Shown: piece after piece, positions 8,941 through 59,229 of the stretch
Position numbering within the stretch: position 1 is the stretch's first letter
How the letters are laid out: every line of letters starts with the position of its first letter
Virus record (IMG/VR): IMGVR_UViG_3300022744_000001
Location: 66,022 to 130,021 of that record
DNA: 64,000 nucleotides
Strand: one strand, 5' to 3'
DNA from: a virus
The notes under the pieces: model-generated
What the model saw: only the letters and a program-made list of their open reading frames with translations
Told to the model about the DNA's origin: nothing
Databases searched by the model: none
Made by a program: the position numbers and the translations under genes

Positions 8941-9114
8941 GCCCTTGTTACACCGCAGGGGAGGGCAATCGAAATTGCACCCCTCAAGTAAGCCAGTGTC
9001 GCGATGCCTAAGCTAAAGCATAAGGGAGACGCGGATGGTTCATACTGAGCTGCAATAGTTTCCGTTCCCCGAATTTTCTTGTGCTCGGGGTAAGTATCCG
9101 TATCGAGGTGCTCT

Positions 9115-10155
9115 ATGCCACAAGCTCCAACCCCACCGTGGGAAGCTGAGAGGCTCGTCGCGCTCGAGAAACTACGTGTTTTCGGGACTCCCGCAGAAGA
9201 GCGGTTTGATCGGCTCACTAGGCTAGCCTGCAAGACCTTCGGGTTGCCTATCGCGGTCCTCGACCTTCTTGGGGCGGATACCGCTTGGCTCAAGAGCACC
9301 CAGGGGTATCACAAGGTTCGAGCGCCCAGGGCGACGTCGTATTGCGGCTACACGATCTTGCAGGAGAACTCTCTGGTGGTGCCGGACGCGCAGCAGGACC
9401 CGCGCCTCTTCGACAACCCGTACGCCCAGAATTTCCGCTTTTACGCAGGGGTTCCCCTTCGCAGTGCGGGGATGCCAATTGGGGCCTTCTCGGTTTCCGG
9501 CTACACCCCAAGGCTCTGGACAGAGAATGACACCCAGGCCCTCTACGAGTTCGCTCGAGTTGCTGAGTTCGAACTTCGGATCACGAAACTCAGCGAAACC
9601 CAACTCTGTCTCGCAGCAGAGAACGAGGTCAGATACCGTCCCCTCGTTGACGACTTGACGAAGACCTGGAACAAGACCGCGATCATCGAAATTCTGGGGA
9701 GGGAGCTTCGCAAAGCCGCGGAGGCGGACGTCTCCACTGGCATCCTGATGCTCGACATCGACCACTTCAAGAAGGTCAACGAGGAGCGGGGCTACTCCGC
9801 CGGAGACACCCTTTTGCAGGGCCTGGCCGAGCGTCTTCGCGCCGTTCTGCGGCACTCGGACAGCCTGGGGCGGTATGGGGGCGAGGAGTTCGTTGTTGTG
9901 CTTCCTCGATGCACCAGGGAGGACGCTCTCGAGATTGCGGAACGAGTCCGAACCGCGGTGGAGAGCAAACCCTTTGGGGCTATCTCGGCCACGGTATCTG
10001 TGGGGGTCACCGTGGCCGCGGCCCCCTCCCAGAACCACGCCGTTCTACTCCAAGCCGCTGACTTGGCCCTCTATCGAGCCAAGCAGAGGGGTAGAAACCG
10101 GGTCGAGTCTCGTTGGACAACCCCCTCGTTCGCCGCGCTCCGGGCTACGAAGTAG
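9115..10155 (+). CDS. GAF-GGDEF diguanylate cyclase (GGEEF active-site variant, RxxD I-site present)
   Basis: RYGGEEFVVVLP motif, RHSD five residues upstream, N-terminal GAF-like region; GAGGTG RBS. Confidence 0.8.
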   Translation: MPQAPTPPWEAERLVALEKLRVFGTPAEERFDRLTRLACKTFGLPIAVLDLLGADTAWLKSTQGYHKVRAPRATSYCGYTILQENSLVVPDAQQDPRLFDNPYAQNFRFYAGVPLRSAGMPIGAFSVSGYTPRLWTENDTQALYEFARVAEFELRITKLSETQLCLAAENEVRYRPLVDDLTKTWNKTAIIEILGRELRKAAEADVSTGILMLDIDHFKKVNEERGYSAGDTLLQGLAERLRAVLRHSDSLGRYGGEEFVVVLPRCTREDALEIAERVRTAVESKPFGAISATVSVGVTVAAAPSQNHAVLLQAADLALYRAKQRGRNRVESRWTTPSFAALRATK

Positions 10156-10156
10156 G

Positions 10157-10618
10157 TCAGACCGAAGGCACCAGGGACTCAATCGCCCCGGCGGCATGGG
10201 CGGGCCCCAGGATGCGGCGACGGTCCGAGCTGTCGATGAGCACCACCAGGAAGCGGCTGGAGAGGCTCTTGATGATCTGGGTGCCCTCCATCGTGTCTCG
10301 CGTGATCCGGGCCGCTATGGCCGTCAGGCCAGTCTTCTCCTCGAGCTTTCGGAGAGACTCGGTCCGGTCGAAGACGACCCCAACCCGGTCAGGCCGGTGG
10401 ACACTGTCGATGGCGCCGAGCAGCCACAAGCACTTGTACTCCTGGCAGGCTGTGGGCCGAGTCGCATAGCAGTCGCACTTGTGGTTCATCACGTGCGAGC
10501 ACATCTGAAAGGTGCTCTTCTGAATCTCGGGCACCCCCAAGGCGGTGCAGCACTCGTTGCACTGACCGCAGGATCGTCCTTGGGGTTTGGGGGCTTGGGG
10601 GAGACGTCGTTTGCTCAT
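10157..10618 (-). CDS. CxxCxxCC (YkgJ-type) putative zinc/iron-chelating domain protein
   Basis: SCGQCNECC motif plus downstream Cys cluster; AGAGGAGAGC RBS. Confidence 0.55.
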   Translation of the reverse strand: MSKRRLPQAPKPQGRSCGQCNECCTALGVPEIQKSTFQMCSHVMNHKCDCYATRPTACQEYKCLWLLGAIDSVHRPDRVGVVFDRTESLRKLEEKTGLTAIAARITRDTMEGTQIIKSLSSRFLVVLIDSSDRRRILGPAHAAGAIESLVPSV

Positions 10619-10650
10619 GCTCTCCTCTGTGCGCGAGACCAGGCGGAATT

Positions 10651-11061
10651 TCAGCCCTTCGTCGCTTTCTTCTCGGCCCGACGAAGTTCTTTGCGGACGC
10701 GCTTGAGGCGGTCAGAAGCTTCCGGGTAGCCCGGCATGCTCCAAGAGTCCTTGCGAGCCTTCATCGCCCGACCCTTCAACGCCATCACGTGCTTGCGGGC
10801 GGAGGCGTAACGGGCGCGAAGCTCGTCGAGGGTCAGCTCCTTCTTGGCGGCCTTCGGCTGGTTCTGGCCCATGTAGACGCGGAAGCCGCGGGCTTCCAGC
10901 TCAAGGCGAAGGGCCACCTTCGCGGCGTTGACGGCGACTTCGTCGCTCTCGCTCGTGGTGAGCGTCGGGACGTACCCGTTTTTGAGGGAAGCTTCGAGCT
11001 GGCTCCAGCTCGAGAAGGCAGTGACCGTGGTCGTCAGGGTGTTGAGTGCTTGGCTTTCCAT
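10651..11061 (-). CDS. hypothetical protein, Lys-rich C-terminus (136 aa)
   Basis: ATG 11061 abuts M1. Confidence 0.6.
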   Translation of the reverse strand: MESQALNTLTTTVTAFSSWSQLEASLKNGYVPTLTTSESDEVAVNAAKVALRLELEARGFRVYMGQNQPKAAKKELTLDELRARYASARKHVMALKGRAMKARKDSWSMPGYPEASDRLKRVRKELRRAEKKATKG

Positions 11062-11097
11062 GTCCTGGTAACGCGCAGGGGGAGGGGTTTCTATACT
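11062..11097 (-). promoter_or_regulatory. M1 motif (TATAGAAA-N13-GCGTTACCAGGAC-ATG)
   Basis: consensus copy. Confidence 0.55.
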
Positions 11098-11360
11098 GCC
11101 TCGGTCGGGCCCTCATGTTTTTCCGTGCAGGGGCAGCGGTAGGTTGCAAGGTCCTCCTTGGACCGCCACTCCCCTTTGCCCTTGCAGTAGGGGCAGTTGG
11201 GGTCCGGAAATTGAAGGACAGATGGGGTAGCCTGAAGCTCCCGGCGAGCGGCGTCGATGTGTCCCCGGCACTCCCGAAGCGTGAGGTAACACCGGCGCTC
11301 GCTGTGGCCGGTCTCCTTGGAGAGCATCTTCGCCGCGTCTGTGACCAACATGGAACTCAT
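11091..11360 (-). CDS. Cys-rich zinc-finger protein (89 aa)
   Basis: ORF track; ATGA overlap with upstream gene. Confidence 0.45.
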   Translation of the reverse strand: MSSMLVTDAAKMLSKETGHSERRCYLTLRECRGHIDAARRELQATPSVLQFPDPNCPYCKGKGEWRSKEDLATYRCPCTEKHEGPTEAV

Positions 11361-11575
11361 GCTTCGTCCTCGTCGTCAAGGAGTTCGATCTCTTCTTCCA
11401 TGAGGGCCTGTTCCGCCCCCATGACCTCGTCCGCCCCACACTCGGAGCAGGGGTAGCCTTCCGCGTCGGGCTCGACGTCCCCATAGTTCCAGGCGTAGCA
11501 AGCCAAGCAGATGCCGTCGTCTCCAGCAACGTGTTCCTCGTACGCTTCCTGGGTCAGCTTCGGTTTATCAAGCAT
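11357..11575 (-). CDS. acidic zinc-ribbon protein (72 aa)
   Basis: internal ATG with GGAAGGTGG RBS. Confidence 0.45.
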   Translation of the reverse strand: MLDKPKLTQEAYEEHVAGDDGICLACYAWNYGDVEPDAEGYPCSECGADEVMGAEQALMEEEIELLDDEDEA

Positions 11576-11774
11576 TGGCGGCCACCTTCCCGGCTTCCGT
11601 GATCTCGAACACCCGGTAGGAGGCGTAGGTCTGGTCGTTCCAAAAGCTGGTTGCCAAACCCTTTTCGACCAGGGCTTCGAACAGCTTGATTTCACTCTCT
11701 TTGCCTGGGGATTGGCGGCCCTTCTCGGCCAGGAGTGTGAGACGGCGGGATTGCGCTTTGGTCAGTTCAGGCAC
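11568..11774 (-). CDS. small winged-helix-like protein (GTG start)
   Basis: GAGGAGGAAG RBS then GTG overlapping upstream stop. Confidence 0.35.
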   Translation of the reverse strand: MPELTKAQSRRLTLLAEKGRQSPGKESEIKLFEALVEKGLATSFWNDQTYASYRVFEITEAGKVAANA

Positions 11775-14383: not shown

Positions 14384-14827
14384 TCAGCAGTGAGGGCTTT
14401 GCTCTCCCCTTTTTGCTCCACCCGCAATCTGGTCGATGCGTTCGAAGAGCCGTTCCATGTAGATGGAGCGGTAGTTCCGCTGCACCATCACTCGACGTTC
14501 ACGGATGGCGTGCAGAAGGTGGTCAAAGGTCATGTCCTTCGACGTCGGCAAATCGTGGTAGGAGTTGTCCCCTTGCCCGACTTCAACCAGGTCGCGCTTG
14601 AACGCGAGCATCCACGCATCTCGAGCTGGCCCCTCTTCCACTTTCTCAACCGTGCCGTAGTCGTTGTACGTGGCCTTCAATGGGAAGTTGCGCGGCCCCC
14701 AGACCTCATGGATGTAAACGGGTGCGCTTTTCTTGTCGGGCGCCTCAGTGAGCAGGAAATACCGGACTTTGGTTCCACCAGGAATCGGAAGACCGGAGAT
14801 TGCACAGGTTAGGTTGAATGATCCCAT
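14384..14827 (-). CDS. hypothetical protein (147 aa)
   Basis: ATG 14827 preceded by M2. Confidence 0.55.
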   Translation of the reverse strand: MGSFNLTCAISGLPIPGGTKVRYFLLTEAPDKKSAPVYIHEVWGPRNFPLKATYNDYGTVEKVEEGPARDAWMLAFKRDLVEVGQGDNSYHDLPTSKDMTFDHLLHAIRERRVMVQRNYRSIYMERLFERIDQIAGGAKRGEQSPHC

Positions 14828-14921
14828 GCTCGGGGTACACCGGTGGTGGTGATTTACTTGTCCTCGGACTTTTGTCGTGGAAGACCTCATTCTCCGAGTA
14901 GCCGCCCGGTACACGTATGCG
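14828..14921. promoter_or_regulatory. divergent intergenic region with M2 copies in both orientations
   Basis: GGTGTACC (minus) and GGTACAC-N7-ATG (plus). Confidence 0.45.
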
Positions 14922-16097: not shown

Positions 16098-16124
16098 AGG
16101 TATCCCCGACGGTGTAGAGACGGT

Positions 16125-16496
16125 ATGGTTTGCAGACATTCTGACGGCGATCGAAGCTGTACCACGCGATACCCGCGCTACGACCCGCCCGACCCGCCGA
16201 AGACGCCTGACGCGAGCAACTACAGCATCGAGGATGTGATGCGGGTAGGGCGTCACCTTGTGATGAAGGTGAAATACCCCAACTGCTCGAGTTGCGCGTT
16301 CGAGGGCACCAAGATCCTAGTGTTCCTCAACATCTCGGAGCTTGAAGCGCTGAAATGGCGGAAGATCGACCCGCACTTCCGTGACCCCCGAAGGAAGTCC
16401 ACCACGGAGGCTCCGAGCCCTGCGGCCCGCTTCCCAGGGACTCCAGAGGGCTGGGCGGATGCGGTTGCTTACGCAAACTCCAAGGAGAGCAAGTGA
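16125..16496 (+). CDS. hypothetical protein (123 aa)
   Basis: M2 (GGTGTAGA-N6-ATG). Confidence 0.5.
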   Translation: MVCRHSDGDRSCTTRYPRYDPPDPPKTPDASNYSIEDVMRVGRHLVMKVKYPNCSSCAFEGTKILVFLNISELEALKWRKIDPHFRDPRRKSTTEAPSPAARFPGTPEGWADAVAYANSKESK

Positions 16497-18799: not shown

Positions 18800-19111
18800 T
18801 CACCGAGAAGCCTTGGACAGGTCCAGGTGGTAGGTGGCGTCCTTGTGCTTGGGCTGGTTGAGCTGCCAGAGGAAAAACAGGATGAAGGCTACCGCCGCCT
18901 TCTCGCTCAAGCCCGCCGCCTTGAGGCCCGCTTCCGTGGACCGGAGAGCGCCGCCCACGACTTCCATGTACCCCCGACGCACCAGCGGGCCGTACGTGCG
19001 CTTGTCGTCCGAGTAGATGCTCGGGACGTTGAACTGCGGGCTCCCGGTCGTGAAGCTCGGGATCGCGCCGCGGTGGATGAGCTTGGTCTGCTTGTCGGTG
19101 AGCTTTTCCAT
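18800..19111 (-). CDS. hypothetical protein (103 aa)
   Basis: M1 upstream. Confidence 0.6.
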   Translation of the reverse strand: MEKLTDKQTKLIHRGAIPSFTTGSPQFNVPSIYSDDKRTYGPLVRRGYMEVVGGALRSTEAGLKAAGLSEKAAVAFILFFLWQLNQPKHKDATYHLDLSKASR

Positions 19112-19146
19112 GACCTGGTAACGCGTAGGCGGTCGAGTCCCTATAC
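19112..19146 (-). promoter_or_regulatory. M1 motif
   Basis: TATAGGGA-N13-GCGTTACCAGGTC-ATG. Confidence 0.55.
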
Positions 19147-19162
19147 TGGGGCGAGTCGAAAT

Positions 19163-19441
19163 TCAGACGGTCGGGTACTCGATGCCCGCGACCTTGCGCC
19201 AAGAGTAGGAGTTCGCTTCGTAATCCGTTCCGAAGCACACCTTGTGCACCGTCGTGATCATCTCGTCCTGGCCCGAGATGATGATCCGCTTCTTCCCGAA
19301 CAGGTTGGCGCCGAAGAGGGCTCGCTGCTGGTCGGCGGTCATCCGGCCATCCCAGGTGCCGAAGCACGAGCCCGTCTTCTCCGTGAGGAAGACGGCAAGG
19401 TTAGCGATCGTGTCCCAGTTCTGGCTCTTCTGCTTTTCCAT
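19163..19441 (-). CDS. hypothetical protein (92 aa)
   Basis: M1 upstream (19442-19476). Confidence 0.6.
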   Translation of the reverse strand: MEKQKSQNWDTIANLAVFLTEKTGSCFGTWDGRMTADQQRALFGANLFGKKRIIISGQDEMITTVHKVCFGTDYEANSYSWRKVAGIEYPTV

Positions 19442-19497
19442 GCCCTACGAACGCGTGAGGGATCGACTTTCTATACCGCCCGGTGTAGAAAACGCCA
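19442..19497. promoter_or_regulatory. back-to-back M1 (minus) and M2 (plus) copies
   Basis: CTATACC-GCC-CGGTGTAGAA. Confidence 0.5.
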
Positions 19498-19689
19498 ATG
19501 TCTGACGTTGAGCTAGAAGAAGTCGTCAAGCTCCTGGGGGAGGATGAAGCTTGGAGACTCCTACTCTGGTGGGTCATGTCCGCCGCGCTACTGATCGGCT
19601 CGTCGCTCTACGTTGAGGTCCACAAAGACCCGAATTCCCTCGAGAACTCGAGAGACGTTCAGATCAGTCCTCTTTCCGCTTCACCGTGA
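19498..19689 (+). CDS. small membrane protein (63 aa)
   Basis: M2 (GGTGTAGA-N8-ATG). Confidence 0.45.
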   Translation: MSDVELEEVVKLLGEDEAWRLLLWWVMSAALLIGSSLYVEVHKDPNSLENSRDVQISPLSASP

Positions 19690-21986: not shown

Positions 21987-22373
21987 TCAGTAGTCGGAAG
22001 ACACACCCAGGATCTGGGCTGCAAACCTGGCCGCGTACCCGGCCTCGTTGGTCGAGAGGTTCGTGCGAGCGATGGCGAGCAGCATGGCCCCCTCCAGAGT
22101 CTTGGAGAACACGTGCTTGTCCTCGCCGTCCACGAACACGGAGTAACGCACACAGTCCCGGATCTTGAGGTAATGTTCGTGGCGCGGCTCCATGAAAAGC
22201 CGGACTTCCTTGACAGTCAACGCCTGACCAAAAGCCTCCTTGACGGCGAAGCGGTCCAGGACCTCCACCAGGGTGTACCGGCCGACATGGTGGTAGTCGA
22301 GTACCTGACCCACTCCAGTGAGCTGCACCTTCTTACGGTTTTCTTCGATGGTTTCAGGGGTGTGCATGTTCAT
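21987..22373 (-). CDS. hypothetical protein (128 aa)
   Basis: ATGA overlap. Confidence 0.5.
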   Translation of the reverse strand: MNMHTPETIEENRKKVQLTGVGQVLDYHHVGRYTLVEVLDRFAVKEAFGQALTVKEVRLFMEPRHEHYLKIRDCVRYSVFVDGEDKHVFSKTLEGAMLLAIARTNLSTNEAGYAARFAAQILGVSSDY

Positions 22374-24697: not shown

Positions 24698-24962
24698 GCA
24701 GGGACAGGTTTTTCCTGGTCAAGGCGTAGGACGTCCAATCGTTTTTCAAGGGGCGACGACCTGACCCGCTCTCCGTGACCACCCCGACCTCGAAACGGTG
24801 CTTGGAAGCCAGGATCACGAAAATCCAACCCGTCTGAGTGGCCTTCTCATACTCAACCGGCCCGGTTTGGATGTACCCCAGATCCTTCAAACGGTCGTGG
24901 AGCGCCTTCGGGAGGGGGACAGCGGGGGCCTTTTTGGTCGGCTGCTCGGACACAGTGATCAT
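24690..24962 (-). CDS. hypothetical protein (90 aa)
   Basis: ATGA overlap, GGAGGAGG RBS. Confidence 0.5.
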   Translation of the reverse strand: MITVSEQPTKKAPAVPLPKALHDRLKDLGYIQTGPVEYEKATQTGWIFVILASKHRFEVGVVTESGSGRRPLKNDWTSYALTRKNLSLLK

Positions 24963-25420
24963 CGCCTCCTCCGGAAAGACCGAGCTACGACCTGCCAGTC
25001 GTCCGCCTGAAGGTCTTCATCGCTCGGGTCGTAGTTCCCCATCTGTTCGTCTGCGGCCAGGAATAACACCGCCGAGACCGAGCCGCCAACCACCTCGAAC
25101 TTGCGCACCAGGATGACCTGCTCGTCACCCCAGGCACGGCGTGCGATCACGCCATTGAACCCGGCCTCGGTCGCCGCCTTCTGGAAATTCAAGAGTTGCA
25201 TAGCATCCACCGCCTCATCTACTGCCTGGGTGCTGATTTTCACCCAAACCTTCCGCCGTTTCACTCGGAAAAGCACAACGCAGTAAGGCGTTGGCTGCAC
25301 CCCGACCGTCCCCCGCACCTCTCCCACAGTCCCCGCAGGGATCTCAATAGGGTCCCCGGCTTTTTGGTTGACATCTCGAAAGCCGTAGACGGGGAAAGGG
25401 AATCGAACGGTTCGTTTCAC
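24959..25420 (-). CDS. hypothetical protein; C-terminal half paralogous to gene 33579-33863
   Basis: shared GVIARxAW...YxPxDEDLxAxDWxVV blocks. Confidence 0.5.
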   Translation of the reverse strand: MKRTVRFPFPVYGFRDVNQKAGDPIEIPAGTVGEVRGTVGVQPTPYCVVLFRVKRRKVWVKISTQAVDEAVDAMQLLNFQKAATEAGFNGVIARRAWGDEQVILVRKFEVVGGSVSAVLFLAADEQMGNYDPSDEDLQADDWQVVARSFRRRR

Positions 25421-25426
25421 GTTGGT

Positions 25427-25852
25427 TTAGAACACCTTTTCGCCGATCCGGCGGATTGCCGACGCGCGGTAGCTCTCGATGACCTCTTCGCTCCACGGCA
25501 CCCGGCCGTCCACGACGATGTCGGCCACTCGAACGATGCACCCGCAAACCCCAGCCCCGCCGACGTGGGTGGCGTCCTCGCGCGAACAGTGGATGATCTT
25601 CGTCCCCTCGAGTCGAAACCATCCATCCACGCGGAAGCCATGGTGGCCAAAGGTATCGTCTTTGCGGATGAAATGGAAAAGGTCTCCGATATCCGGGGCG
25701 AGCTGACGTGGCTGCTCGCGCACCCAGTGGTCACGGCCTTCCTCGTCGAGGATTTCGTCGATGATCCGCTGGGCCAACTCCTCGGAGGTTTCCTCGGGGT
25801 GTTCATCGCGAAGCCGGGTCGCGATCTCGAGCATCCGCTTTTTGTCTTCCAT
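25427..25852 (-). CDS. hypothetical protein (141 aa)
   Basis: M1 upstream. Confidence 0.6.
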   Translation of the reverse strand: MEDKKRMLEIATRLRDEHPEETSEELAQRIIDEILDEEGRDHWVREQPRQLAPDIGDLFHFIRKDDTFGHHGFRVDGWFRLEGTKIIHCSREDATHVGGAGVCGCIVRVADIVVDGRVPWSEEVIESYRASAIRRIGEKVF

Positions 25853-43252: not shown

Positions 43253-43560
43253 CCATGAGCGAAGAACCCGACGTCAAGTTGATCAAGCACACGGGGGAGT
43301 GCGACCGCCCCGACGACCCGAGCTACCCTTGGAAGCTCGAGGCCAGCATGAGCCCGCCCCAGTTCATGACCGTGGCCTTCATTGGCATCCACGGGGGCTC
43401 CGAAGACATCGTAGCCCGAGGCAAGACCAAGGAAGCGCTCGAGGCGTGGTACAAGGAAAAGCTGGGCGACCACCCAAGGATGCGACGTGCGACCCTGACC
43501 GGCCCCGACGGGGTGACCATCGACCTCCGCGCCAAACCTACGAGTTCACCAGGTCAGTGA
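43249..43560 (+). CDS. hypothetical protein
   Basis: ATGA overlap. Confidence 0.45.
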   Translation: MTMSEEPDVKLIKHTGECDRPDDPSYPWKLEASMSPPQFMTVAFIGIHGGSEDIVARGKTKEALEAWYKEKLGDHPRMRRATLTGPDGVTIDLRAKPTSSPGQ

Positions 43561-43879
43561 GACTGGGACGCTCGAACGCCCGGTCCAAATCGTCCAGCCA
43601 CTTCATGAGCCAGCCCGCCGCACAGTGGAGAGGGCTCGTCCCCTGATAGAGCGTCCTGGGAGCCACCCAGCGCCCATCCTCGCCCCGAACCGGTGCTTCC
43701 CCCAGGAGAAGGCTGATCGCGTTCACCGCGTCCGCCTCGCTGAACGCAGGGCCCGGGGGAAGGGTCTTGAGCATCCCCACCGTCGTGTTGCAACGAGGGC
43801 AGATGACAGCTGTCCCGCGAAGCTGGAGGTCTTCATCGCACTGGGGGCACTGCCCCGCATCAATGAACGTTTGGTGCAT
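43538..43879 (-). CDS. zinc-ribbon protein (CPQCDEDL...CPRCNT)
   Basis: M2. Confidence 0.55.
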   Translation of the reverse strand: MHQTFIDAGQCPQCDEDLQLRGTAVICPRCNTTVGMLKTLPPGPAFSEADAVNAISLLLGEAPVRGEDGRWVAPRTLYQGTSPLHCAAGWLMKWLDDLDRAFERPSLTDLVNS

Positions 43880-43888
43880 GGCGGGAAG

Positions 43889-44236
43889 CTACACCGGGAA
43901 GGGCTTCGGGACCACCGGCTCGATGTGAACGCCGTCATACTCACGAACGTAACGGAACCGGTGCTTGTGCTCGTGGATGAACCTCCGCATGTAGACCCAG
44001 CAATCGTGCCACTCGTACTCCGCCGTCTTGGGGTTGTCGCGGTCGCGGTATTCGCGGAAGAGAAACGATAGGGTTTGGAATGCCCCGAGCGCTTCCCTCT
44101 GCTTCTCGAACTCGAAACACAGGGCGTCTTTCCAAAGGTCCCCTGGAGTGACGATAGGGCTACCCACGAAGATGCCGAGGCGAAACCGGGTCGCGTAGTT
44201 CGTTGGGACCATGTAGAGCGTCGCAGGGGTAGCCAT
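43889..44236 (-). CDS. hypothetical protein (115 aa)
   Basis: M2. Confidence 0.55.
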   Translation of the reverse strand: MATPATLYMVPTNYATRFRLGIFVGSPIVTPGDLWKDALCFEFEKQREALGAFQTLSFLFREYRDRDNPKTAEYEWHDCWVYMRRFIHEHKHRFRYVREYDGVHIEPVVPKPFPV

Positions 44237-44475
44237 GCCCCGAGTACACCGGTGCTATTCGGACACCGGGAGGGTTCGCCGACTCGCTCGAGCCCGGAGC
44301 CGCTTCCACTTCCTGCGGCCACGAGCCACATGCGTTGCGTTGCACCCAGCACCTGGGTTTGCACTCTCGTACCGAGGCCCATGCTCGGTACGCTTGGTGC
44401 CAGACCGTCGTGGGTTCGTCTTGTTACTCAAGGGCAGCTCCCTCCCAGCTCTGACACCACCGGTGTAGTCCCCAG

Positions 44476-44953
44476 CATGATTCGTAGAGTCACGGTTCGC
44501 AAAAAGCCCCACGAGGCATCCTCGCTCGCCAAGCTCCTTCTGCTCGACGTGACCGATGCCGCGCCCCTCTACGACATCACGCCGTTCGGAGCCTTCCGCA
44601 CCGACGACAAGGGCCGCCCCGAGTTCATGAAGGGCCGCCGATGCTACGTGGGCCTGAGCCCGATTCGAAGCGCCAAAGCCCTCGACACCATGCTGTCCCA
44701 GCTGATCTACCAAGCCGCAAGGTGGGTCCGCCGCTACACCAAAGCGAGTGACCCGGACGCGAACTTCAACACCTTTGCCGAGGTGAGCGCCAAATCGGGC
44801 CGGTACGAGGAGTACGAAATCTTCACGGAAGCCTTCCCCGAAGAGATCGGCAGGCTTGTGCACAGACCAGGATCGTGGCTCTATGGCGCGGTCATCTACG
44901 ACCCGTGGAGACTTTCCGTGGTGGAACACGGGAAGAGGGGAAAGAAATCATGA
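44476..44953 (+). CDS. hypothetical protein (159 aa)
   Basis: M2. Confidence 0.5.
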
Positions 44954-45538: not shown

Positions 45539-45829
45539 ATGGAAACGAAGATCGCTGACTGTACCGTGGTCGGATTCCGTGAAAGCCGAGACCTGCACTG
45601 GGAGTACGACGAGACACGTACCTACGTGAAACGTATTACGCCCGTCCCAGGGAGCGACAAAGCGTTCCTCTCCCTCATGCTCGGAGACCGTGTCGTCGAA
45701 GTCCAACTCAAGACCGAAGACATCGACCCCGTCCTCGACTGGCTCAACCAACAGCGGATGGCGAAGATGCCCCAAACACCGTCGCTCGGAAGCGAAGAGG
45801 CCGACCTCCTCGCCGCCCTCAAGGCGTGA
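45539..45829 (+). CDS. hypothetical protein (96 aa)
   Basis: AGAGGTGGC RBS. Confidence 0.5.
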   Translation: METKIADCTVVGFRESRDLHWEYDETRTYVKRITPVPGSDKAFLSLMLGDRVVEVQLKTEDIDPVLDWLNQQRMAKMPQTPSLGSEEADLLAALKA

Positions 45830-46334
45830 CCCCAAACCCCTGCTCGTAGACGAGCTGAAACCCGGTTGGGAACGCCGCCACCGAGACGGGACTCCAAAGG
45901 TAATGACGGCCGTCCACGTAGAGAAGCCGGTCCGCCTGGGGCATCTTCTCAAACCCCGCCTCGAGCATCGCCGCGTACTCGGGCGCATGCTGGACCTCGA
46001 TGATGTTCCCCTCCTTGACCAGGAAGGTCCCAAAAGGCTTCCCGTGGACACGGACAGGGTAACGACGCGTCCCCAGGTCCACCGCCCCTTCCAGAGTCGG
46101 CTGAGCCCGTTCGCCAGGGATAGAGACGCCACGGAACTCGTCGAGGCTGACCGCCACGGTGGGGTCCTGGGGCTCTCGGAAGACCAGCTCGATGTACGTC
46201 CCCGGCGAGACAAGCCCGCCCAGCTCGAATAGCTCCTGAGCCGCTACGGCTCGAGACGCCTCAGCGACTCGGAGCTGGTGCTTGACCCGAGCCACGAACT
46301 GGGCATTGCTCTCCATCATCCACGGCATGAACAT
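45819..46334 (-). CDS. hypothetical protein (171 aa)
   Basis: M2. Confidence 0.55.
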   Translation of the reverse strand: MFMPWMMESNAQFVARVKHQLRVAEASRAVAAQELFELGGLVSPGTYIELVFREPQDPTVAVSLDEFRGVSIPGERAQPTLEGAVDLGTRRYPVRVHGKPFGTFLVKEGNIIEVQHAPEYAAMLEAGFEKMPQADRLLYVDGRHYLWSPVSVAAFPTGFQLVYEQGFGVTP

Positions 46335-46342
46335 GAGCAGAG

Positions 46343-46696
46343 CTACACCGGGGAGACGCCGTCGAAGATCACCACGAGCTTGTAGTCCTGGTTCGAAGCA
46401 CGCCGTTCCACTTCGATGCTGGCCGCTCCAATCACCATCTTCCGCCGTCGCACCTCAGCGAGGAGCCGGTCCACGAGGAGCTTGACCTTGGACTCGACCT
46501 GCGCCTTGAACGCATCCCCGTAAGCCGCGGGCATCCGACCCGTCTCCATCTGCCGAACCTCCCGCCCGTTGAACCACGCCCAGTCGAGCACGGTGGCATT
46601 CCAAGGCCCAAGGACATGAGCGATACGGAACTCGGGGACGTCGAGCATAAGCCGAGCCAGGACCGTCCAAGCTTCAGTCTTGAGGTCGAACATCAT
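46343..46696 (-). CDS. hypothetical protein (117 aa)
   Basis: M2 located inside 3' end of upstream CDS. Confidence 0.55.
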   Translation of the reverse strand: MMFDLKTEAWTVLARLMLDVPEFRIAHVLGPWNATVLDWAWFNGREVRQMETGRMPAAYGDAFKAQVESKVKLLVDRLLAEVRRRKMVIGAASIEVERRASNQDYKLVVIFDGVSPV

Positions 46697-46890
46697 GCCC
46701 CCGAGCTACACCGGCGTACGAGGACAGCCCCACCACCGATGCCCAGGTGCACAGCCTGACCCTCCTCGAGCCCCTGTAGCTCGAGAACCTCACCCGGGTC
46801 GAGGTCCGGATTCTCCGCCAAGAAGTCCTCGAGCAGGACAGGGGTAGGGGAGCCGGTGAGGTCGGAGAGGTCGAGAAGGACCTGTGTCAC
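46693..46890 (-). CDS. small acidic protein (GTG start)
   Basis: GTGA stop-start overlap. Confidence 0.3.
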   Translation of the reverse strand: MTQVLLDLSDLTGSPTPVLLEDFLAENPDLDPGEVLELQGLEEGQAVHLGIGGGAVLVRRCSSGA

Positions 46891-47243
46891 GGCTTCCACC
46901 CCTTGGGAGCCTTCCACCCCGCGGCCAGGGCCGTCTTGGCCCACTCGGGCATCGGCCGGTCATGCTTCAACGCCGCACGGGCAAGGGTGAGAGCGGCTCG
47001 AACCTCCTTGTTCGTCTCCCAGTAGAAGCCGAACGAGTCCCGCTGGACACCGGGGAAATCCTTCACGGCTCGAGACGCCGCCCAGTGCTCCCACTCGTCA
47101 CGGTCCCACTTGGGGTTCGCTTCCCCCACGCCGTCGGTCACGTCCTGGCCCAAGTACCCGCCCAGGTCGTCATCCATCTGCCACTGGATGCGAAACTTGT
47201 ACCCGTCATCGTCAATGACCAATGTCGCTTTTTCCGTACTCAC
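46887..47243 (-). CDS. hypothetical protein (GTG start, GAGTGAGGAGAAG RBS)
   Basis: RBS + overlap. Confidence 0.5.
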   Translation of the reverse strand: MSTEKATLVIDDDGYKFRIQWQMDDDLGGYLGQDVTDGVGEANPKWDRDEWEHWAASRAVKDFPGVQRDSFGFYWETNKEVRAALTLARAALKHDRPMPEWAKTALAAGWKAPKGWKP

Positions 47244-49607: not shown

Positions 49608-49949
49608 CTAGATCCGCTCCAGGGTGCAGAACTTGAACTCGCGCCGCTGAATCTCCGGAGCCGCGTTGAACCAAACGCAGCTGGCCTCAGTCCCTTCCAC
49701 ACGCTCCACGACCATCTCGACACTCGACGCCTTCAGCTTGACCCGGTTCCCCGGCTCGAACACCCCCAGGTGCCCCGCCTTCTGCACCAGATTCACAGCC
49801 ACCGGAGCCACCACACTCCACGTGTGCTCCCCGTGCTTCTCCCACACCACGAACAAGTCCCCCGTCTCCGCACTGTTGATGCTCTCCACCACCATGCTGG
49901 GACTGCCCGACTTCAACTGCACCACGTCCCCAGGCCCGATTTCGCTCAT
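49608..49949 (-). CDS. tandem DUF2158/YodC-like small domains
   Basis: GDVVQLKSGSPSMVV and GNRVKLKASSVEMVV repeats. Confidence 0.55.
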   Translation of the reverse strand: MSEIGPGDVVQLKSGSPSMVVESINSAETGDLFVVWEKHGEHTWSVVAPVAVNLVQKAGHLGVFEPGNRVKLKASSVEMVVERVEGTEASCVWFNAAPEIQRREFKFCTLERI

Positions 49950-49994
49950 GCAAAGTCCTCCAGGGCGGGAAGTACACCGGGCCGGAAGTGAAAT

Positions 49995-51117: not shown

Positions 51118-51954
51118 TCAGAGGCCCGCGGGCCAGGGGTACTTGGTCATGTTGTGGAACTCGGGGTAGTGCATCTTGCCGCGGATGCTCTGGGCCTCGG
51201 GGGTCACTTCGCCGTCCACGATGAGGCCGAAGGCCGCCCACACGTGGTCACGCTCGAGGAGGGCGAGGGCCTGGGCCGTGTTCAGCTCAGAGCGGCTCTT
51301 GCCGGTCAGCTCGCGGAGCTTGCTGGGGGCGTCCTCGAAGATGGTCGCGAGCGTAGACGTGGTGTGGTTCTTGAGGGCCGAGTCAATCCGCTTCTGGTAG
51401 GAGGCGATCTTCTCCGCGAGCTTCTGGGCTCGCTTGTCCTGGACGCGCTTCTGAGCCGTGGCTTTGGTCTCCTCGACCTTGCGGGCAGCTTCCTCGACCG
51501 TCTGGAGGGGCTCGAGCTTCCAAGCCGCGATGCGAGCCTCGCAACGAGCGATGTCTTCCTGGAACCAGCGGATGCTCTGCTTGGTCGCGTGGGTCGTGTT
51601 GCTCAGGAGCAACTCCCAGCCTTCCTCACCCTTGGAGACTTCCACGAACTCGACCGTGCGAGTGACGCGGACCTTGACCTCTTTGAGGAGCTTCGTGACC
51701 TCACCGGCGACCAGCTTGGCCAGGTAGGTCTCAGCGTTCGCGAGCTTGGCCTTGAGGCCGCCCGTGTACTGCTTGAGGACCTCACAGCTCTGCTCGTACG
51801 CGGGCTCGCCCACCGCCATGCAGTCACCGACGATGAAGCCGTGGCCCGGGCGCTTGAACCCGTGGTGCACCATCGTGTGGCCAGCCTTGGGGTTCAGCTT
51901 GAACTGGGCTTCGCAGATTTGGCAGTGTCCGATGTAGCGGGTCTTCGTTTCCAT
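51118..51954 (-). CDS. hypothetical protein with N-terminal Cys/His cluster and coiled coil (278 aa)
   Basis: M1. Confidence 0.6.
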   Translation of the reverse strand: METKTRYIGHCQICEAQFKLNPKAGHTMVHHGFKRPGHGFIVGDCMAVGEPAYEQSCEVLKQYTGGLKAKLANAETYLAKLVAGEVTKLLKEVKVRVTRTVEFVEVSKGEEGWELLLSNTTHATKQSIRWFQEDIARCEARIAAWKLEPLQTVEEAARKVEETKATAQKRVQDKRAQKLAEKIASYQKRIDSALKNHTTSTLATIFEDAPSKLRELTGKSRSELNTAQALALLERDHVWAAFGLIVDGEVTPEAQSIRGKMHYPEFHNMTKYPWPAGL

Positions 51955-51994
51955 GTCCTATGAACGCGCAGGGGGTTGCGGTTCTATACCGAAA

Positions 51995-53090: not shown

Positions 53091-53288
53091 TCAGTCCGGG
53101 GTGTGCCGTTGGTACTCCGACGTCATGGCTTCCAGGACCTCTTGCAGGTCCTCGCCGGTGAAGAAGCGTTCTGCCTTGCGGTATGCCTTCTCCAGCTCCT
53201 GGTCGGTCTTGCACGTACGCGCCAGGGCGATCAGCTGGTCGTAGGTCTCGCTGACATCGTAGCCAGTAGGCTTCTTCTTGCGTGCCAT
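53091..53288 (-). CDS. hypothetical basic protein (65 aa)
   Basis: M1. Confidence 0.5.
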   Translation of the reverse strand: MARKKKPTGYDVSETYDQLIALARTCKTDQELEKAYRKAERFFTGEDLQEVLEAMTSEYQRHTPD

Positions 53289-53327
53289 GTCCTATGAACG
53301 CGCGAGGGGGCTCGAGCCTATACCGGC

Positions 53328-55896: not shown

Positions 55897-56223
55897 TCAG
55901 ACCACTGGGGCAGCCGTGGGAGCGGCTTTCTTGGATGCCTTCTTGGCCTTGGGGGCAGGGGTTTCACCACTGCTCGCCGCTGCGGGCTTCTCAGCGGCCT
56001 TCTTGACCCTCGGGCCACGCTCGGGGAAGAGGCAAAGGGTGCCCTTGCGGTCGATGATGCGGGCCATCTTGCCCCCGAAGCTGTGCGGGCCCTTCCCCTC
56101 CTTCTCGAGGATCTGGCGCAGGATGTCTCGACCCTCCGCTTGAAGGGTCTTCACCTGGGCCTGAGTGGTCTCGGTCTCGGCCTTGTTGGCCACGTACTTG
56201 TCAAAGAGTGATGTCTTGCTCAT
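55897..56223 (-). CDS. small protein with histone H1-like Lys/Ala/Pro-rich C-terminal tail
   Basis: M2; tail AKKASKKAAPTAAPVV. Confidence 0.5.
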   Translation of the reverse strand: MSKTSLFDKYVANKAETETTQAQVKTLQAEGRDILRQILEKEGKGPHSFGGKMARIIDRKGTLCLFPERGPRVKKAAEKPAAASSGETPAPKAKKASKKAAPTAAPVV

Positions 56224-56564
56224 GGTCCAGCTCACTACACCGGCCGTAGGCAAGCCCTGGAAAGAAAACCGGCCCCACCGCAGGACGCTCCAGCAAGGCT
56301 GTGTGGGTTCACAGGGACGCCTATCCCTCCCCCACGCGCTTCTTGGTAGCCCGCCATCGTCCCAGCGCGGTAGAACCGGTAGCCGCACCCTCTACCCTCC
56401 CCCTCGAACCACGTCAAGCCACCCCACGTAGGTCAGAGGTACTCGAAACTTGTCCAGTGGGAGACGAATCCGCCCAAACACCCTCTCAGCTCGAGCGGCA
56501 AAACCCTACGTGGCAAAACTTGACCAAACTACCCCCTTTCCCAGGGTAGCTCAGAAGTGGTTTG

Positions 56565-56814: not shown

Positions 56815-56990
56815 GGTGACTACCTTTCCTGTATACCGTGGTGCACCATTTCCGTATACCGGTTTATACCATTCCTGTATACCGCGCGCAACCCCTCCCC
56901 GGCTGGCGCGTTCACGTGCCCACCCACCACACCCTTGTGAACGCGCCAGCCCCCTCGTTCCTATACCTGGACGTGGCCCAGCCCACGAAC
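56815..56990. promoter_or_regulatory. operator/promoter hub: four GTATACC boxes, perfect 15-bp inverted repeat GGCTGGCGCGTTCAC/GTGAACGCGCCAGCC around GGGTGTGGTGGGTGGG, and minus-oriented M1
   Basis: seen directly. Confidence 0.55.
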
Positions 56991-57035
56991 AATCGCACCC
57001 GTATAGAACCAGCCATCCTCGTGCGTTAGAGGGAC
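56990..57035 (+). promoter_or_regulatory. M1 motif (plus)
   Basis: TATAGAAC-N13-GCGTTAGAGGGAC-ATG. Confidence 0.55.
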
Positions 57036-57383
57036 ATGGCACGCTACCAACACATCGCAATCGGGGCCCTCGAGAGGGGCGTTCGCACCCTTGCCAAGAG
57101 CCTCGAGAAGCTCGGGCTCACCACCCAGGTCCACGTGTTCAAGAGCGGCCCCGGCGGCGCCACGTACTTCGGAGCGTCCTACGTCGAACTCGAGGTGAGC
57201 GTCACCTTCAATACCCCCGAGGGCGAGCAGGATGCCTCCCACACGGTCAAGTTCCTGGCCAACGGGTACACGAGCAACGACGCCGACGAAATCGGCGGTA
57301 CCCAGGGCTGGCGCCCCATGGGCGAGGAAGCTCGTACCCGCATCCTCACCAAGCTCCAGGAGCAGGGCTGGAAGCTCCCCTGA
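57036..57383 (+). CDS. hypothetical protein (115 aa)
   Basis: M1. Confidence 0.55.
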   Translation: MARYQHIAIGALERGVRTLAKSLEKLGLTTQVHVFKSGPGGATYFGASYVELEVSVTFNTPEGEQDASHTVKFLANGYTSNDADEIGGTQGWRPMGEEARTRILTKLQEQGWKLP

Positions 57384-57437
57384 GCCAGTATAGAACCACC
57401 CACCCTCGCGCGTTCATAGAGCACAAGGAGCAAGTCA

Positions 57438-57524
57438 TGGCCAAGCGCAAGACCCCCACGTTCATCATCGAGGAGAATGTCGGCAACGGCCACCACGACC
57501 CCTCGCGCGTTCATAGGGCATGAG
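57438..57524 (+). CDS. 28-aa ORF between a full M1 copy (with added AAGGAG RBS) and a second GCGCGTTCAT half-motif
   Basis: seen directly; coding status uncertain. Confidence 0.3.
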
Positions 57525-57804
57525 CAAGAAAGCCCCAGTCCAGTTCGGCCGCGGTACCAACAAGGTGATTGGCAAGACCCGCACCATCATCTCGGACGAC
57601 AAGGAGTACATCTCCAAGTGCGGCGAGTACAAGATTGAGGGTCGCCACTTCGTCCTCCCCTACTCCTCCTACGCCTACACCCTCTACAAGATGGTGGGCG
57701 GGCAATGGGTCCGCCTCGGCTCCGGAGGCGAACACGACAAGCTCGCGGACGCCAAGTTCGCCGCTTGTGCCGACCGTGACCCCAACTACGAACCCACCGT
57801 CTGA
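57520..57804 (+). CDS. hypothetical protein (94 aa)
   Basis: half-M1 (GCGCGTTCATAGGGC-ATG). Confidence 0.55.
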   Translation: MSKKAPVQFGRGTNKVIGKTRTIISDDKEYISKCGEYKIEGRHFVLPYSSYAYTLYKMVGGQWVRLGSGGEHDKLADAKFAACADRDPNYEPTV

Positions 57805-58335
57805 AGGGCCAACACTTCGACTCTGACCAAAAGGTTCGACCAACCCCTACCCGAATACCGCACAACCTCAAAAGTCAAACGAAAAGCGTGGGTACCTGAC
57901 CAGCACCAACCATGTCCGCAGGTAAATCCCGCACGCGGTAGTCAAGCACAATCCACAACCATTACGCTTTGTGGTCTCGGTACCTGACCATAGCTCGGTA
58001 CCTTGTCATCCGTGTGTTGTGGCCGGTGTACATACCTCCAAAGCTATACAAACCTCTAGGCACGGAAGTTGCAGAGAGGTTTTGGAACGGGTGGGGGTTT
58101 GGCAACGACCACAACGACACGACTTTAAAAGGACTTTGGCCCTTCGGGCCGGGTCGGTTTCGAGTCTTGTCCAGGTTGTGCAAACGGCCCTCCCCTGGGA
58201 CCTCTTTTGTCTGGAGTTGGTCCCCCGTCTCCACGGCACCACCTGGGCCTCTGGCGGGCCTTGGTTGTGCTCTTGGGGGTTTCTCCCCTGGGGGTTTCTC
58301 CCTTTGCTCCTATGGGGCTCTTCTGGGCGTGTCCT
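57805..58335. other. 530-bp apparently non-coding boundary region with GGTACCTGACCA x2 and TGGGGGTTTCTCCC x2 direct repeats and a GGCCC-TTC-GGGCC hairpin
   Basis: no convincing ORF; composition switches here. Confidence 0.4.
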
Positions 58336-59193
58336 TTACTTGGCTCGCTCCTGTTCTTCCTGGTCTCTCCGCAGGGCTTCTTGGACGTCTTCCCACCACT
58401 GTGTGGCTTGGTTGATGAAGGCGTCTTCGGCACCTTCTACCTGGTCGAATCCCGGGTACGTATTGACCTCTAGGAGTGTGGGGGGACCTTCCTTTGGGAC
58501 TTGGTAGTCGATGCCCACGACATCTAGGTTGAGCTTGTGGGCTGTGAGGGAGGCGTGGCTGAGGAGGGTGTGTCCTTTGGGGGTGGTGGGTTCGAGGGGG
58601 AGGGTTTCGATCGCGGCTTCGACATTCTTGCGCCAGTCGTGGCTGTGGTAGCGGAGGTGCCACGTGTGGGGGCCGATGATGAGGATGCGGTCGGAGGTTC
58701 CTGGGATGTAGGGTTCGACGAGGGTGTCGTCTGGGGCGGTGAAGGGGCCTTGGGAGAGGGCTTTATCTTCGCCGCAGTGGGAGTTGCTCCATTTGAAGAC
58801 GTGGGGGGCGGGGGTGGGCAGTTCGAGTCTGTGTCCTTGGGGGAGGAAGCCTCTGGGGACATGGGAGTTGGGGTTGGCCAGGAGGAGGGAGAGGACCCTA
58901 TCGTCGTGGGGCAGTGTGGGGCGGATGTTTGGGAACGTGGGGGTGTTGGCGAGGGCGAGTGCTCTTCTTGTCTGTTGGGCGTGGGGGAAGTAGCCGTAGT
59001 AGATGACCCCGTTTGGTTCGAGCCATCTTCCTGGGACGCGTTGGGACTCGATACGGACTTGGCCATCGAGGCTGTAGGCGGGGGGTGGGGCTGCGTAGTG
59101 GACGACTCGGGTGTTTTTGAGGCGGGTGCGGAGTTGGGCGTCGGTGGTGGGGTCGATGCCTATGCTGATGAGGAGGGGGTCGTTCGGGGTCAT
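58336..59193 (-). CDS. ATP-grasp family ligase-like protein
   Basis: C-terminal LLEVNTYPGF block typical of ATP-grasp; C-rich codons on strongly strand-skewed segment. Confidence 0.55.
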   Translation of the reverse strand: MTPNDPLLISIGIDPTTDAQLRTRLKNTRVVHYAAPPPAYSLDGQVRIESQRVPGRWLEPNGVIYYGYFPHAQQTRRALALANTPTFPNIRPTLPHDDRVLSLLLANPNSHVPRGFLPQGHRLELPTPAPHVFKWSNSHCGEDKALSQGPFTAPDDTLVEPYIPGTSDRILIIGPHTWHLRYHSHDWRKNVEAAIETLPLEPTTPKGHTLLSHASLTAHKLNLDVVGIDYQVPKEGPPTLLEVNTYPGFDQVEGAEDAFINQATQWWEDVQEALRRDQEEQERAK

Positions 59194-59229
59194 GGGGGAC
59201 GGTTTAGCACGGGCGGTGTAGCTAGGAGG

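Follow-up and report, generated by a model that had tools for sequence, protein, structure and literature searches.

GGTGTA motifs beside the start codons of an uncultivated huge phage: candidate promoters for leaderless genes

What is the function of a short sequence that recurs a few bases upstream of many start codons in a single viral genome? The question is raised by a 64,000-nucleotide stretch of viral DNA (IMG/VR record IMGVR_UViG_3300022744_000001, positions 66,022 to 130,021; hereafter the window). A first-pass annotation described there a start-associated motif, M2, with about 30 copies 6-9 nt before ATG, and took it for a translation-initiation or regulator-binding element rather than only a promoter. 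The analysis reported here favors a different answer: M2 is probably a compact, phage-specific promoter that consists of a -10 element only and gives mostly leaderless mRNAs.

The M2 motif and its position

The window is 61% G+C and crowded with small open reading frames (ORFs) on either strand. Independent gene calls that accompany the contig records were placed on the coordinate system of the window; they amount to about 175 genes in 82.5 kb (the window and both flanks). With at most one mismatch, the sequence CCGGTGTAGC matches the window 20 times, against 4.2 expected, and none of 100 shuffles reached 20. The conserved core is shorter than the 10-mer first described: GGTGTA, preceded by C in 31 of 40 sites and followed by G, C, A, or T in 21, 9, 6, and 4 of them, respectively. 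Positions -45 to -3 relative to M2 have zero information content, which leaves the motif without a -35-like partner.

GGTGTA occurs 54 times in the window, and M2 copies are found on both strands. In 31 of the 54 cases an ATG follows 8-11 nt after the A (8 nt in eight, 9 nt in ten, 10 nt in ten, and 11 nt in three), which equals 6-9 nt when counted from the end of the earlier 10-mer. ORFs of 60 or more codons begin at all but three or four of these ATGs (27-28 of 31). Over the 82.5 kb, 29 of 75 GGTGTA sequences are located 8-11 nt upstream of called starts, where 0.31 would be expected (P ~1e-46). An unbiased count of 6-mers 5' of ORF-opening ATGs ranks GGTGTA at the top (36 versus 3.3 expected); the next-ranked 6-mers are fragments of a sister motif, M1. 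The scan against start codons thus reveals strong positional enrichment, and bears out the motif, its copy number, and its distance from ATG as first described.

The M2-adjacent genes, about 30 of them, are small. At half of the sites (20/40) the ATG is the earliest possible start of its frame. Copies also occur outside the range first described (820, 7482, and 7514). Paralogy was considered as the source of the repeats and dropped, because the 82 kb contain just three paralogue pairs.

Start codons without Shine-Dalgarno sequences

M2 occupies the place of the ribosome-binding site (RBS). A strong Shine-Dalgarno (SD) sequence precedes none of 29 M2-adjacent genes, versus 59 of 134 other genes (Fisher test, 6e-7); elsewhere in the genome, the SD is clearly of the GGAG type, with normal spacing.

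Complementarity to a generic 16S rRNA 3' end was evaluated directly. M2 pairs via GGUG:CACC alone, at -5.6 kcal/mol compared with -7.8 for AAGGAGAA, and this duplex stops 10-12 nt short of the AUG. Median anti-SD pairing is -6.0 for M2 genes, -5.95 for SD-less genes, and -9.3 for SD genes. The conserved preceding C and following TA(G) are unable to pair, and the scores are no better than those of SD-less genes. Because only GGUG pairs with the anti-SD, M2 is not an ordinary RBS, and the original view that it is no simple anti-SD fit stands. Furthermore, no RNA structure is associated with M2 sites (mean z -0.33).

M2 might instead be a translational element of another kind: an RNA-level element, similar to the start-associated sequences (SAS) of Cluster K mycobacteriophages, that replaces the SD on polycistronic mRNAs and recruits or positions ribosomes, either directly or via a phage factor. 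This rather unlikely explanation would account for the short, fixed distance to ATG and the total exclusion of SD sequences, and GGUG does pair with the CACC of the 16S 3' end. However, the pairing comprises just 4 bp, the best-conserved flanks remain unpaired, and no RNA structure accompanies the motif.

C at -1 is the rule in all start classes of the 82.5 kb, frequently as CC ahead of the ATG and together with G at +4. This residue is present in 65 of 111 motif-less genes, 23 of 29 M2 genes, and 10 of 10 M1 genes, and constitutes a Kozak-like start context in a bacterial-type genome.

Copies distant from the start codon

A second class of M2 lies farther upstream. Seven copies are found 20-45 nt before starts, against 1.25 expected (P = 3e-4; 82.5 kb); over the same 82.5 kb, none is found 13-22 nt before a called start. 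Five of the seven genes have a strong SD of their own. The SD of distant-copy genes usually lies within about 20 nt of M2 and 4-10 nt before ATG. The distance from GGTGTA to the first base of the SD is 11-13 nt at 36846 (GGTGTAaaagccctcaacGGAG), 49949 (GGTGTActtcccgccctGGAGG), and the flank gene -3113, about 20 nt at the major vault protein (MVP) gene, and 31 nt at gene 292-600. Each SD thereby falls 3' of a putative transcription start point 9-11 nt after M2. For example, upstream of the DUF2158 gene (49608-49949), M2 is CCGGTGTACT (49971-49980, minus strand), with GGTGTA 23 nt before ATG 49949 and the SD GGAGG 11 nt past GGTGTA.

The MVP gene (30822-33458, plus strand) encodes a full-length homologue of 878 aa with MVP shoulder and vault repeat domains. 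Upstream is CCGGTGTACG (30782-30791, plus strand), which places GGTGTA 32 nt before the ATG, and the leader contains the SD GAGGAGAGAGG. Three genomes encode MVP orthologues (protein identity, 59-63%), and in these CGGTGTA lies 32, 41, and 35 nt before ATG. It is the sole run of invariant columns in the three-genome upstream alignment, and each leader has its own SD. A start-codon-proximal translational element is unlikely to be so conserved this far upstream. The distant copies, most with their own SD and one kept in three genomes, thus argue against an SD-replacing RNA element.

So does a copy that precedes an RNA rather than an ORF. M2 CCGGTGTACC (34567-34576, plus strand) has no ORF downstream; a tRNA-like RNA (34586-34652, plus strand) starts 12 nt past GGTGTA. 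Its acceptor stem is GGCUGGU/GCCAGCC, and its T arm is CGGGGUUCGAUUCCCCG. An inverted partner 11 nt away, TTGGTGTAGG (34550-34559, minus strand), places GGTGTA 11 nt before ATG 34540 (gene 34286-34540).

Divergent genes and inverted copies

Eleven of the 29 M2-adjacent genes head divergent pairs. Four of the divergent spacers are only 30-57 bp long: 30 bp (ATGs 34980/35011), 32 bp (left flank), 47 bp (36846/36894), and 57 bp (right flank). Nothing is conserved in these spacers beyond the two M2 copies, and heads this close together leave no room for another promoter. If M2 acted on RNA in place of an SD, then the promoters of such genes would fall within the neighboring gene, and no other promoter candidates were found.

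Sigma-70-type promoters occur at chance levels: 3 versus 2.8 expected in 30-50 kb, and 0 versus 1.3 in the left flank. The pattern TTGACN-N17-TANNNT has just two matches in 82 kb, each exactly 6 nt before other tRNA-like RNAs. (These two sites fall short of the stricter consensus scan, and are retained only as matches to this pattern.) Host-type promoters would appear to exist but to be rare, and likewise to put the RNA 5' end right at the functional sequence. M1 and M2 together precede about 62 of 173 called genes.

Other readings of M2 were set aside. Sigma-54 (-24/-12) and archaeal TATA elements are out because nothing is conserved upstream, and termination-reinitiation is out because of the copies that head divergent units.

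M2 was first described as often a perfect palindrome that serves two divergent genes. One pair is indeed perfect: TACACCGGTGTA (34987-35002), in which the two copies share CCGG between ATG 34980 (minus strand) and ATG 35011 (plus strand). "Often" is an overstatement, however. In TACACCgGCGGTGTA (36868-36886), three bases separate TACACC and GGTGTA; the plus-strand copy precedes ATG 36894 at 9 nt, and the minus-strand copy precedes ATG 36846 at 23 nt, with the SD GGAG 12 nt past GGTGTA. At 41417-41443, the copies are 11 nt apart: TCGGTGTAAA (41417-41426, minus strand), with GGTGTA 11 nt before ATG 41407 (gene 41108-41407), and its inverted partner CCGGTGTAAA (41434-41443, plus strand). The gaps in the approximately nine back-to-back pairs are 0, 0, 0, 2, 3, 4, 5, 11, and 11 nt. 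Because the gap varies, these palindromes are two independent divergent copies, sometimes sharing the self-complementary CCGG, and not one symmetric site.

The gaps also bear on the idea of M2 as an operator for a DNA-binding regulator encoded by the phage (a "stoperator"-type repressor, or an activator), for which the palindromes would be dimer sites. Some copies do form perfect or near palindromes (34987-35002, and 20892 in the related contig L019), and M2 resembles the M1 upstream block, which is offset by about 21 bp, so that one protein could read both. Yet there are only about nine inverted pairs, with none of the fixed half-site spacing that a dimeric operator would display, and most copies are single and asymmetric. 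Moreover, an operator alone would leave unexplained the 8-11 nt spacing, the absence of SD sequences, and the location of the promoters. It is distinctly unlikely as an explanation, but is compatible with a promoter: a factor-dependent promoter would combine both.

Copies between genes on the same strand

The first-pass annotation also placed M2 within the 3' end of upstream coding sequences, and this holds. At 46342-46351 (minus strand), CCGGTGTAGC precedes ATG 46334 (gene 45819-46334), and its TAG is the stop codon of gene 46343-46696. At 46705-46714 (minus strand), CCGGTGTAGC precedes ATG 46696 (gene 46343-46696) from inside the 3' end of gene 46693-46899, with an ATGA overlap. The TAG of M2 doubles as the upstream stop codon at two further sites on the minus strand: CCGGTGTAGT (40135-40144; ATG 40127 of gene 39612-40127; stop of gene 40136-40486), and CCGGTGTAGC (43888-43897; ATG 43879 of gene 43538-43879; stop of gene 43889-44236).

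One same-strand run comprises 39592, 40127, 40486, and 41407. Its first member, CCGGTGTAGC (39600-39609, minus strand), is 7 nt from ATG 39592 (gene 39305-39592); an upstream TGA lies 2 nt before the motif, and there is no SD. Its third, CTGGTGTAGC (40495-40504, minus strand), precedes ATG 40486 (gene 40136-40486).

Copies at same-strand junctions, with the TAG or TAA of the motif as upstream stop codon, also fit an SD-replacing RNA element; the same trait is described in the SAS paper (PMC3203893). They would equally fit an RNA processing site, at which an endoribonuclease cuts long primary transcripts a few nt downstream of M2 to free monocistronic, leaderless mRNAs and the tRNA-like RNA. 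Cleavage would account for the fixed distance, the absence of SD sequences, the junction copies in same-strand arrays, and the copy ahead of an RNA. However, no conserved structure or second element is present, as most RNase sites need; the divergent heads in 30-57 bp spacers would still lack promoters; and cleavage would bring nothing to copies 20-45 nt before SD-led genes. Processing is thus a very improbable function for M2.

The sister motif M1

M1 comprises (G/A)GTATAG, exactly 15 nt, and then CGCGTT, with about 25-28 copies in the window. Examples are 3768-3807, 11061-11100, 19111-19150, 51954-51993, and 53288-53327 (all minus strand), and 35352-35390 (plus strand). Downstream of CGCGTT comes one of two arrangements: exactly 8 nt and then ATG (often ATGGAAA), with no SD, or an SD, mostly about 8 nt on. 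Ten M1 genes are of the first, leaderless type, and 15 are leadered. Counted from the ATG, GTATAG occupies -35 to -30 and CGTTAC occupies -12 to -7, separated by a 17-bp spacer.

M1 would thus have -35/-10 geometry with a CGT-containing -10, similar to ECF-type promoters. It can be read as a promoter of two blocks, with transcription starting at the ATG or shortly before the SD, and M2 can be read as its one-block counterpart. Indeed, this reading of M2 draws on M1, since the sister motif follows the same logic with sigma-type geometry. The M1 upstream block (GGTATAG/GGTTTAG) resembles M2, but is offset by about 21 bp (two helical turns). One speculative and fairly improbable reading is that a single protein recognizes GGTRTAG both at -12 (M2) and at -33 (M1), as a modular promoter code.

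The two motifs cluster separately: M2 is dense at 34-47 kb, and M1 at 3-29 and 51-64 kb. Their separation hints at two regulons or temporal classes.

Conservation in related phages

M2 is kept in at least three related contigs (L018, L019, and L122), ahead of non-homologous genes. GGTGTA is followed by ATG at 8-11 nt for five of nine copies in L018 and 11 of 22 in L019. The L019 copies precede Acb5-like and HTH_8 genes, and also Cpn10, the latter with a leader and SD. (L019 encodes Acb5 [anti-CBASS], Cpn10, and endonuclease V.) L122 is a 435-kb viral contig from IMG/VR (65% G+C), in which three of seven GGTGTA sequences in the first 4.6 kb precede ORFs; all three of these copies use the TAG or TAA of the motif as upstream stop codon. 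L122 emerged from an IMG/VR scan with CCGGTGTAGCT-N6-7-ATG, which gave mostly single, chance matches; among the matches listed, only L122 looked related. A similar scan with the M1 pattern gave three matches, all by chance. M1 in L018 and L019 reads GGTTTAG, about 15 nt, CGTT, 8-9 nt, ATG. Orthologous genes change between M2, M1, and SD-led states, as expected of promoter turnover.

More distant genomes lack both motifs. Neither was found in L020 (54% MVP identity), in which all genes are SD-led and which has its own small sigma gene, nor in the A+T-rich huge phages LR756500 and LR756501. MVP-based locus searches in GTDB genomes and IMG/VR recovered only 37-40% relatives, without M2. MVP identity is 63% with L018, 59% with L019, and 37% with the published huge phages LR756500/1/3. 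Copies at 45-48% identity are mainly from Myxococcota, which are only a hint of the host. A Multi_ubiq-like gene adjoins MVP in three related genomes, and a strong terminator-like hairpin (33481-33516) lies 3' of the MVP gene.

A model for M2 function

These observations of position, spacing, SD exclusion, conservation, and context lead to a model in which M2, judged from its position, would act on DNA. A form of RNA polymerase other than the host primary sigma-70 holoenzyme would bind C-GGTGTA-(G). The reader might be host core enzyme with a phage-encoded or alternative sigma factor, or else a phage RNA polymerase. The TA of M2 would lie at about -12/-10, and transcription would begin 9-11 nt downstream of the A. 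In about four-fifths of the copies, the start point would be the A of the ATG, so that the mRNA would have no leader (or at most a few nt of one) and would be translated with no SD. For the remaining copies, the transcript would start before an SD-bearing leader or at the 5' end of the tRNA-like RNA. Without a leader, a cistron requires a 5'-terminal AUG, and each such gene would hence need its own M2 copy. Such a requirement would explain the copies at each same-strand junction, the overlaps with stop codons, and the back-to-back divergent "palindromes".

The initial preference for translation initiation or regulator binding over a promoter is not sustained. It conflicts with the seven distant copies (five with an SD), the conservation upstream of MVP, the copy before an RNA, the bare divergent spacers, the lack of canonical promoters, and the variable palindrome gaps.

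Several points weigh against a promoter. Its support in this genome is positional throughout. M2 lacks T at the sixth position of TANNNT as well as a -35 element; from the TA, its hexamers are TAGCTC, TAGTGC, TAACCC, and so on, with C>T>G at -7/-8, and the TG is shifted by one position from that of an extended -10. No sigma factor or RNA polymerase gene is present among the approximately 175 genes in the 82 kb read, and the small sigma gene of L020 has no detectable orthologue in this genome. The tRNA-like RNA at 34586 is a single, weak case (Rfam, 19 bits, below thresholds; folding z-score -2). Neither C at -1 with A at +1, which was dropped as a mark of start sites since C at -1 occurs throughout the genome, nor the use of ATG (28 of 29 M2 genes versus 118 of 134 others, not significant) distinguishes M2 starts. 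(A weaker "TA at -12..-10" in SD-less genes, 18% versus 7%, P = 0.1, was rejected as evidence.) Finally, the exclusion of SD sequences and the copies at same-strand junctions and stop codons may be expected equally of an SD-replacing translational element. M2 could then be an analogue of SAS that lacks the SD core and serves in start selection, read by a phage factor or a modified ribosome. This is a fairly improbable reading, and the distant copies would need a separate explanation.

Individual copies and gene annotation

The remaining M2 copies illustrate the range of contexts. Within the region of dense M2, CCGGTGTACT (44243-44252, minus strand; ATG 44236 of gene 43889-44236) and CCGGTGTAGT (44460-44469, plus strand; ATG 44477 of gene 44477-44953) head a divergent pair. 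ACGGTGTATG (38201-38210, plus strand) precedes ATG 38219 (gene 38219-38494). GCGGTGTACG (37564-37573, minus strand) precedes ATG 37555 of a 146-codon ORF (37115-37555), for which the delivered call started at 37369. At 42358-42373, CCGGTGTAGC (plus strand), which precedes ATG 42381 of an uncalled 100-codon ORF, lies back to back with the upstream block of an M1, CCGGTATAGA...CGCGTT (minus strand, gene 41769-42314), with CCGG in common.

Elsewhere, the first copy of the range originally described is GCGGTGTAAC (8947-8956, minus strand; ATG 8940 of gene 8458-8940), and the last is GCGGTGTAGC (59213-59222, plus strand; ATG 59230), which precedes an uncalled 191-codon ORF (59230-59805) that fills an annotation gap. 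Between these are CCGGTGTACC (14834-14843, minus strand; ATG 14827 of gene 14384-14827); ACGGTGTAGA (16109-16118, plus strand; ATG 16125 of gene 16125-16496); and CCGGTGTAGA (19480-19489, plus strand), which precedes ATG 19498 of an uncalled 63-codon ORF and lies back to back with an M1 (minus strand, gene 19163-19441). CCGGTGTAGT occurs twice more on the minus strand. At 30477-30486, it precedes ATG 30468 of the Multi_ubiq-like gene (30229-30468), with an upstream stop TAG abutting; at 56234-56243, GGTGTA lies 12 nt before ATG 56223 (gene 55897-56223), the sole spacing outlier. TTGGTGTATG (25888-25897, plus strand) precedes ATG 25904, which opens 119 codons in frame within the called gene 25640-26263; this copy is back to back with an M1 for the minus-strand ORF 25427-25852. 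Outside the original range, ACGGTGTAGC (820-829, minus strand) precedes ATG 812 of an uncalled 70-codon ORF in the gap 600-879. A homologue search with one M2-driven gene of 291 aa found no relatives, so this gene is an ORFan.

Some copies point into or against annotated genes. Two copies face each other: 7482-7491 (plus strand; ATG 7498 of gene 7498-7830) and 7514-7523 (minus strand; ATG 7505 of an 85-codon ORF antisense to 7047-7475). Another (22270-22279, plus strand) is antisense to minus-strand genes. These copies may drive antisense transcripts or may be due to chance.

For several ORFs that start directly behind M2 or M1, the gene caller gave no call, a shortened one, or a merged one: 42381-42683, 59230-59805, and 19498-19689 (plus strand); 600-812 and 37115-37555 (minus strand); and the pair 25427-25852 (minus strand) and 25904-26263 (plus strand). 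The caller probably missed them for want of an RBS. The motifs at 25.4-26.3 kb suggest two divergent genes where a single plus-strand gene, 25640-26263, was called.

The genome and its other genes

The window sequence is contained in a 448,224-bp contig (ENA ERZ27252002 k141_47206), and is also present in Logan SRR7614061 and JGI 3300021440. The window crosses both ends of this contig, as for a circular or terminally redundant map. By coordinate arithmetic, the first ~608 bases of the contig are a copy of its last (window 56885-57492 versus L006 1-608). Together, this implies that the genome is circular or terminally redundant and about 447.6 kb long. A 10-kb piece compared with phage records by megablast gave zero nucleotide matches, and the element is treated as an uncultivated huge phage.

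Its products are almost all ORFans, and the rare family matches are phage-flavored: two Tad2-like anti-Thoeris proteins, a phage ProQ-C-like protein, DUF6573, and a weak match to TacA1. The flanks encode T4_Y16D and NUDIX matches. In addition to MVP, the window encodes a GAF-GGDEF diguanylate cyclase (9115-10155, plus strand), which matches phrog_14602 over its full length. The Tad2-like match is on 24959-25327 (minus strand); its paralogue 33579-33863 (plus strand) was placed as the second Pfam Tad2-like member by paralogy alone. The ProQ-C-like protein is encoded at 41769-42314 (minus strand). The Tad2-like, ProQ-C-like, and cyclase genes, along with the content of L019, point to a possible accessory or anti-defense region.

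Three tRNA-like RNAs were recognized: 34586-34652 (plus strand), and two in the left flank (minus strand; about 986-902 and 816-745 nt ahead of window position 1, corresponding to L003 ~11336-11587). All three lack a D arm but combine a 7-bp acceptor stem with a perfect T arm (GGTTCGAWTCC) and a long "anticodon" stem of 9-13 bp. ARAGORN classifies the first as a 91-nt tRNA-Ala. Rfam gives no match in the window at gathering thresholds, and only sub-threshold, tRNA-Sec-like scores (19 and 34.5 bits). The loop of the first RNA, CACUUCAA, could present UCA. This RNA overlaps the 3' end of an opposite-strand ORF (34615-34980).

Implications

If the promoter model is correct, then about a quarter of genes in the region read would be expressed as leaderless mRNAs from one-gene transcription units, an unusually extreme and compact expression strategy for a huge phage. 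The model also predicts a sigma factor or polymerase with GGTGTA specificity. M1 versus M2 would provide a handle for sorting genes into regulons or temporal classes, and M2 a sequence tag for spotting this clade of ~0.45-Mb uncultivated phages in metagenomes. More generally, the case carries a caution: "start-associated sequences" can be the promoters of leaderless genes.

Comparison with known systems

The resemblance to actinophage start-associated sequences, proposed at first, proves to be positional only. In Cluster K mycobacteriophages, the SAS (GGGATAGGAGCCC) includes AGGAG, the SD core, occurs in one orientation, and is located 3-7 bp from the start; about half of the copies are accompanied by ESAS, 17-bp imperfect inverted repeats upstream (PMC3203893). 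M2 shares with it an asymmetric repeat a few bp before starts, a preference for ATG and for small non-structural genes, an occasional upstream stop codon within the motif, and conservation across related phages before unrelated genes. Unlike SAS, M2 lacks the SD core and the SAS spacing, occurs on both strands, and is also found 20-45 nt before SD-led genes and before an RNA. No ESAS-like inverted repeat is present upstream of M2, since positions -45 to -3 hold no information.

The closest functional match appears to be leaderless expression from a "-10 region adjacent to ORFs", as known in Deinococcus-Thermus. There, TANNNT (for example, TACACT) lies 6-7 bp before about a third of ORFs, and the host primary sigma factor directs synthesis of leaderless mRNAs (PMC12340547). 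Leaderless mRNAs are also common in mycobacteria (PMC4633059). In both Deinococcus-Thermus and the phage, the element lies at a fixed distance of a few nt in the place of the RBS, SD sequences are found only elsewhere, and start codons can be re-annotated from the motif. M2 differs in sequence and in ownership: it is C-GGTGTA-(G), with the TA 8-11 nt before ATG; it does not conform to the TANNNT consensus; and it belongs to a phage clade rather than to a host genome.

By architecture, M2 would match short phage promoters located at a fixed distance from the transcription start site (TSS), such as the AR9 late promoters. The T4 late promoter is TATAAATA. In AR9, late promoters are AACA-N6-TA/G and early promoters are AAATATATATTAT-N6-G, with leaders of 26-491 nt (PMC5312081). 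Like promoters of the AR9 type, M2 has little conserved sequence, lacks a -35, and would lie at a constant distance from the start point; it is present in dozens of copies, including internal and antisense ones; there are two motif classes per genome (M1 and M2); and the motifs are lineage-specific. The sequences are unrelated, and unlike AR9 transcripts, most M2 units are predicted to be leaderless.

Promoters of the SigB/SigF type (group 3 sigma) offer only a lead. These have GGGTAT, GGGTAG, or GGGTAC at -10 and GTTTAA at -35, with 9-10 nt from hexamer to TSS in the promoter table (PMC8346170). The M2 hexamers GTGTAG and GTGTAC are one mismatch from GGGTAG and GGGTAC, at a similar distance from the start (7-10 nt here), and the M1 upstream block GGTTTAG is like GTTTAA. 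However, M2 has no -35 partner, and M1 pairs its GTTTAG-like block with CGCGTT rather than GGGTAN.

On the best-supported reading, M2 would be a -10-only, non-TANNNT promoter, specific to one clade of huge phages, from which mostly leaderless mRNAs are made. Such a promoter would have precedents: for leaderless expression from an ORF-adjacent -10 element in Deinococcus-Thermus (PMC12340547), and for short phage promoters set at a fixed distance from the TSS in AR9 (PMC5312081).

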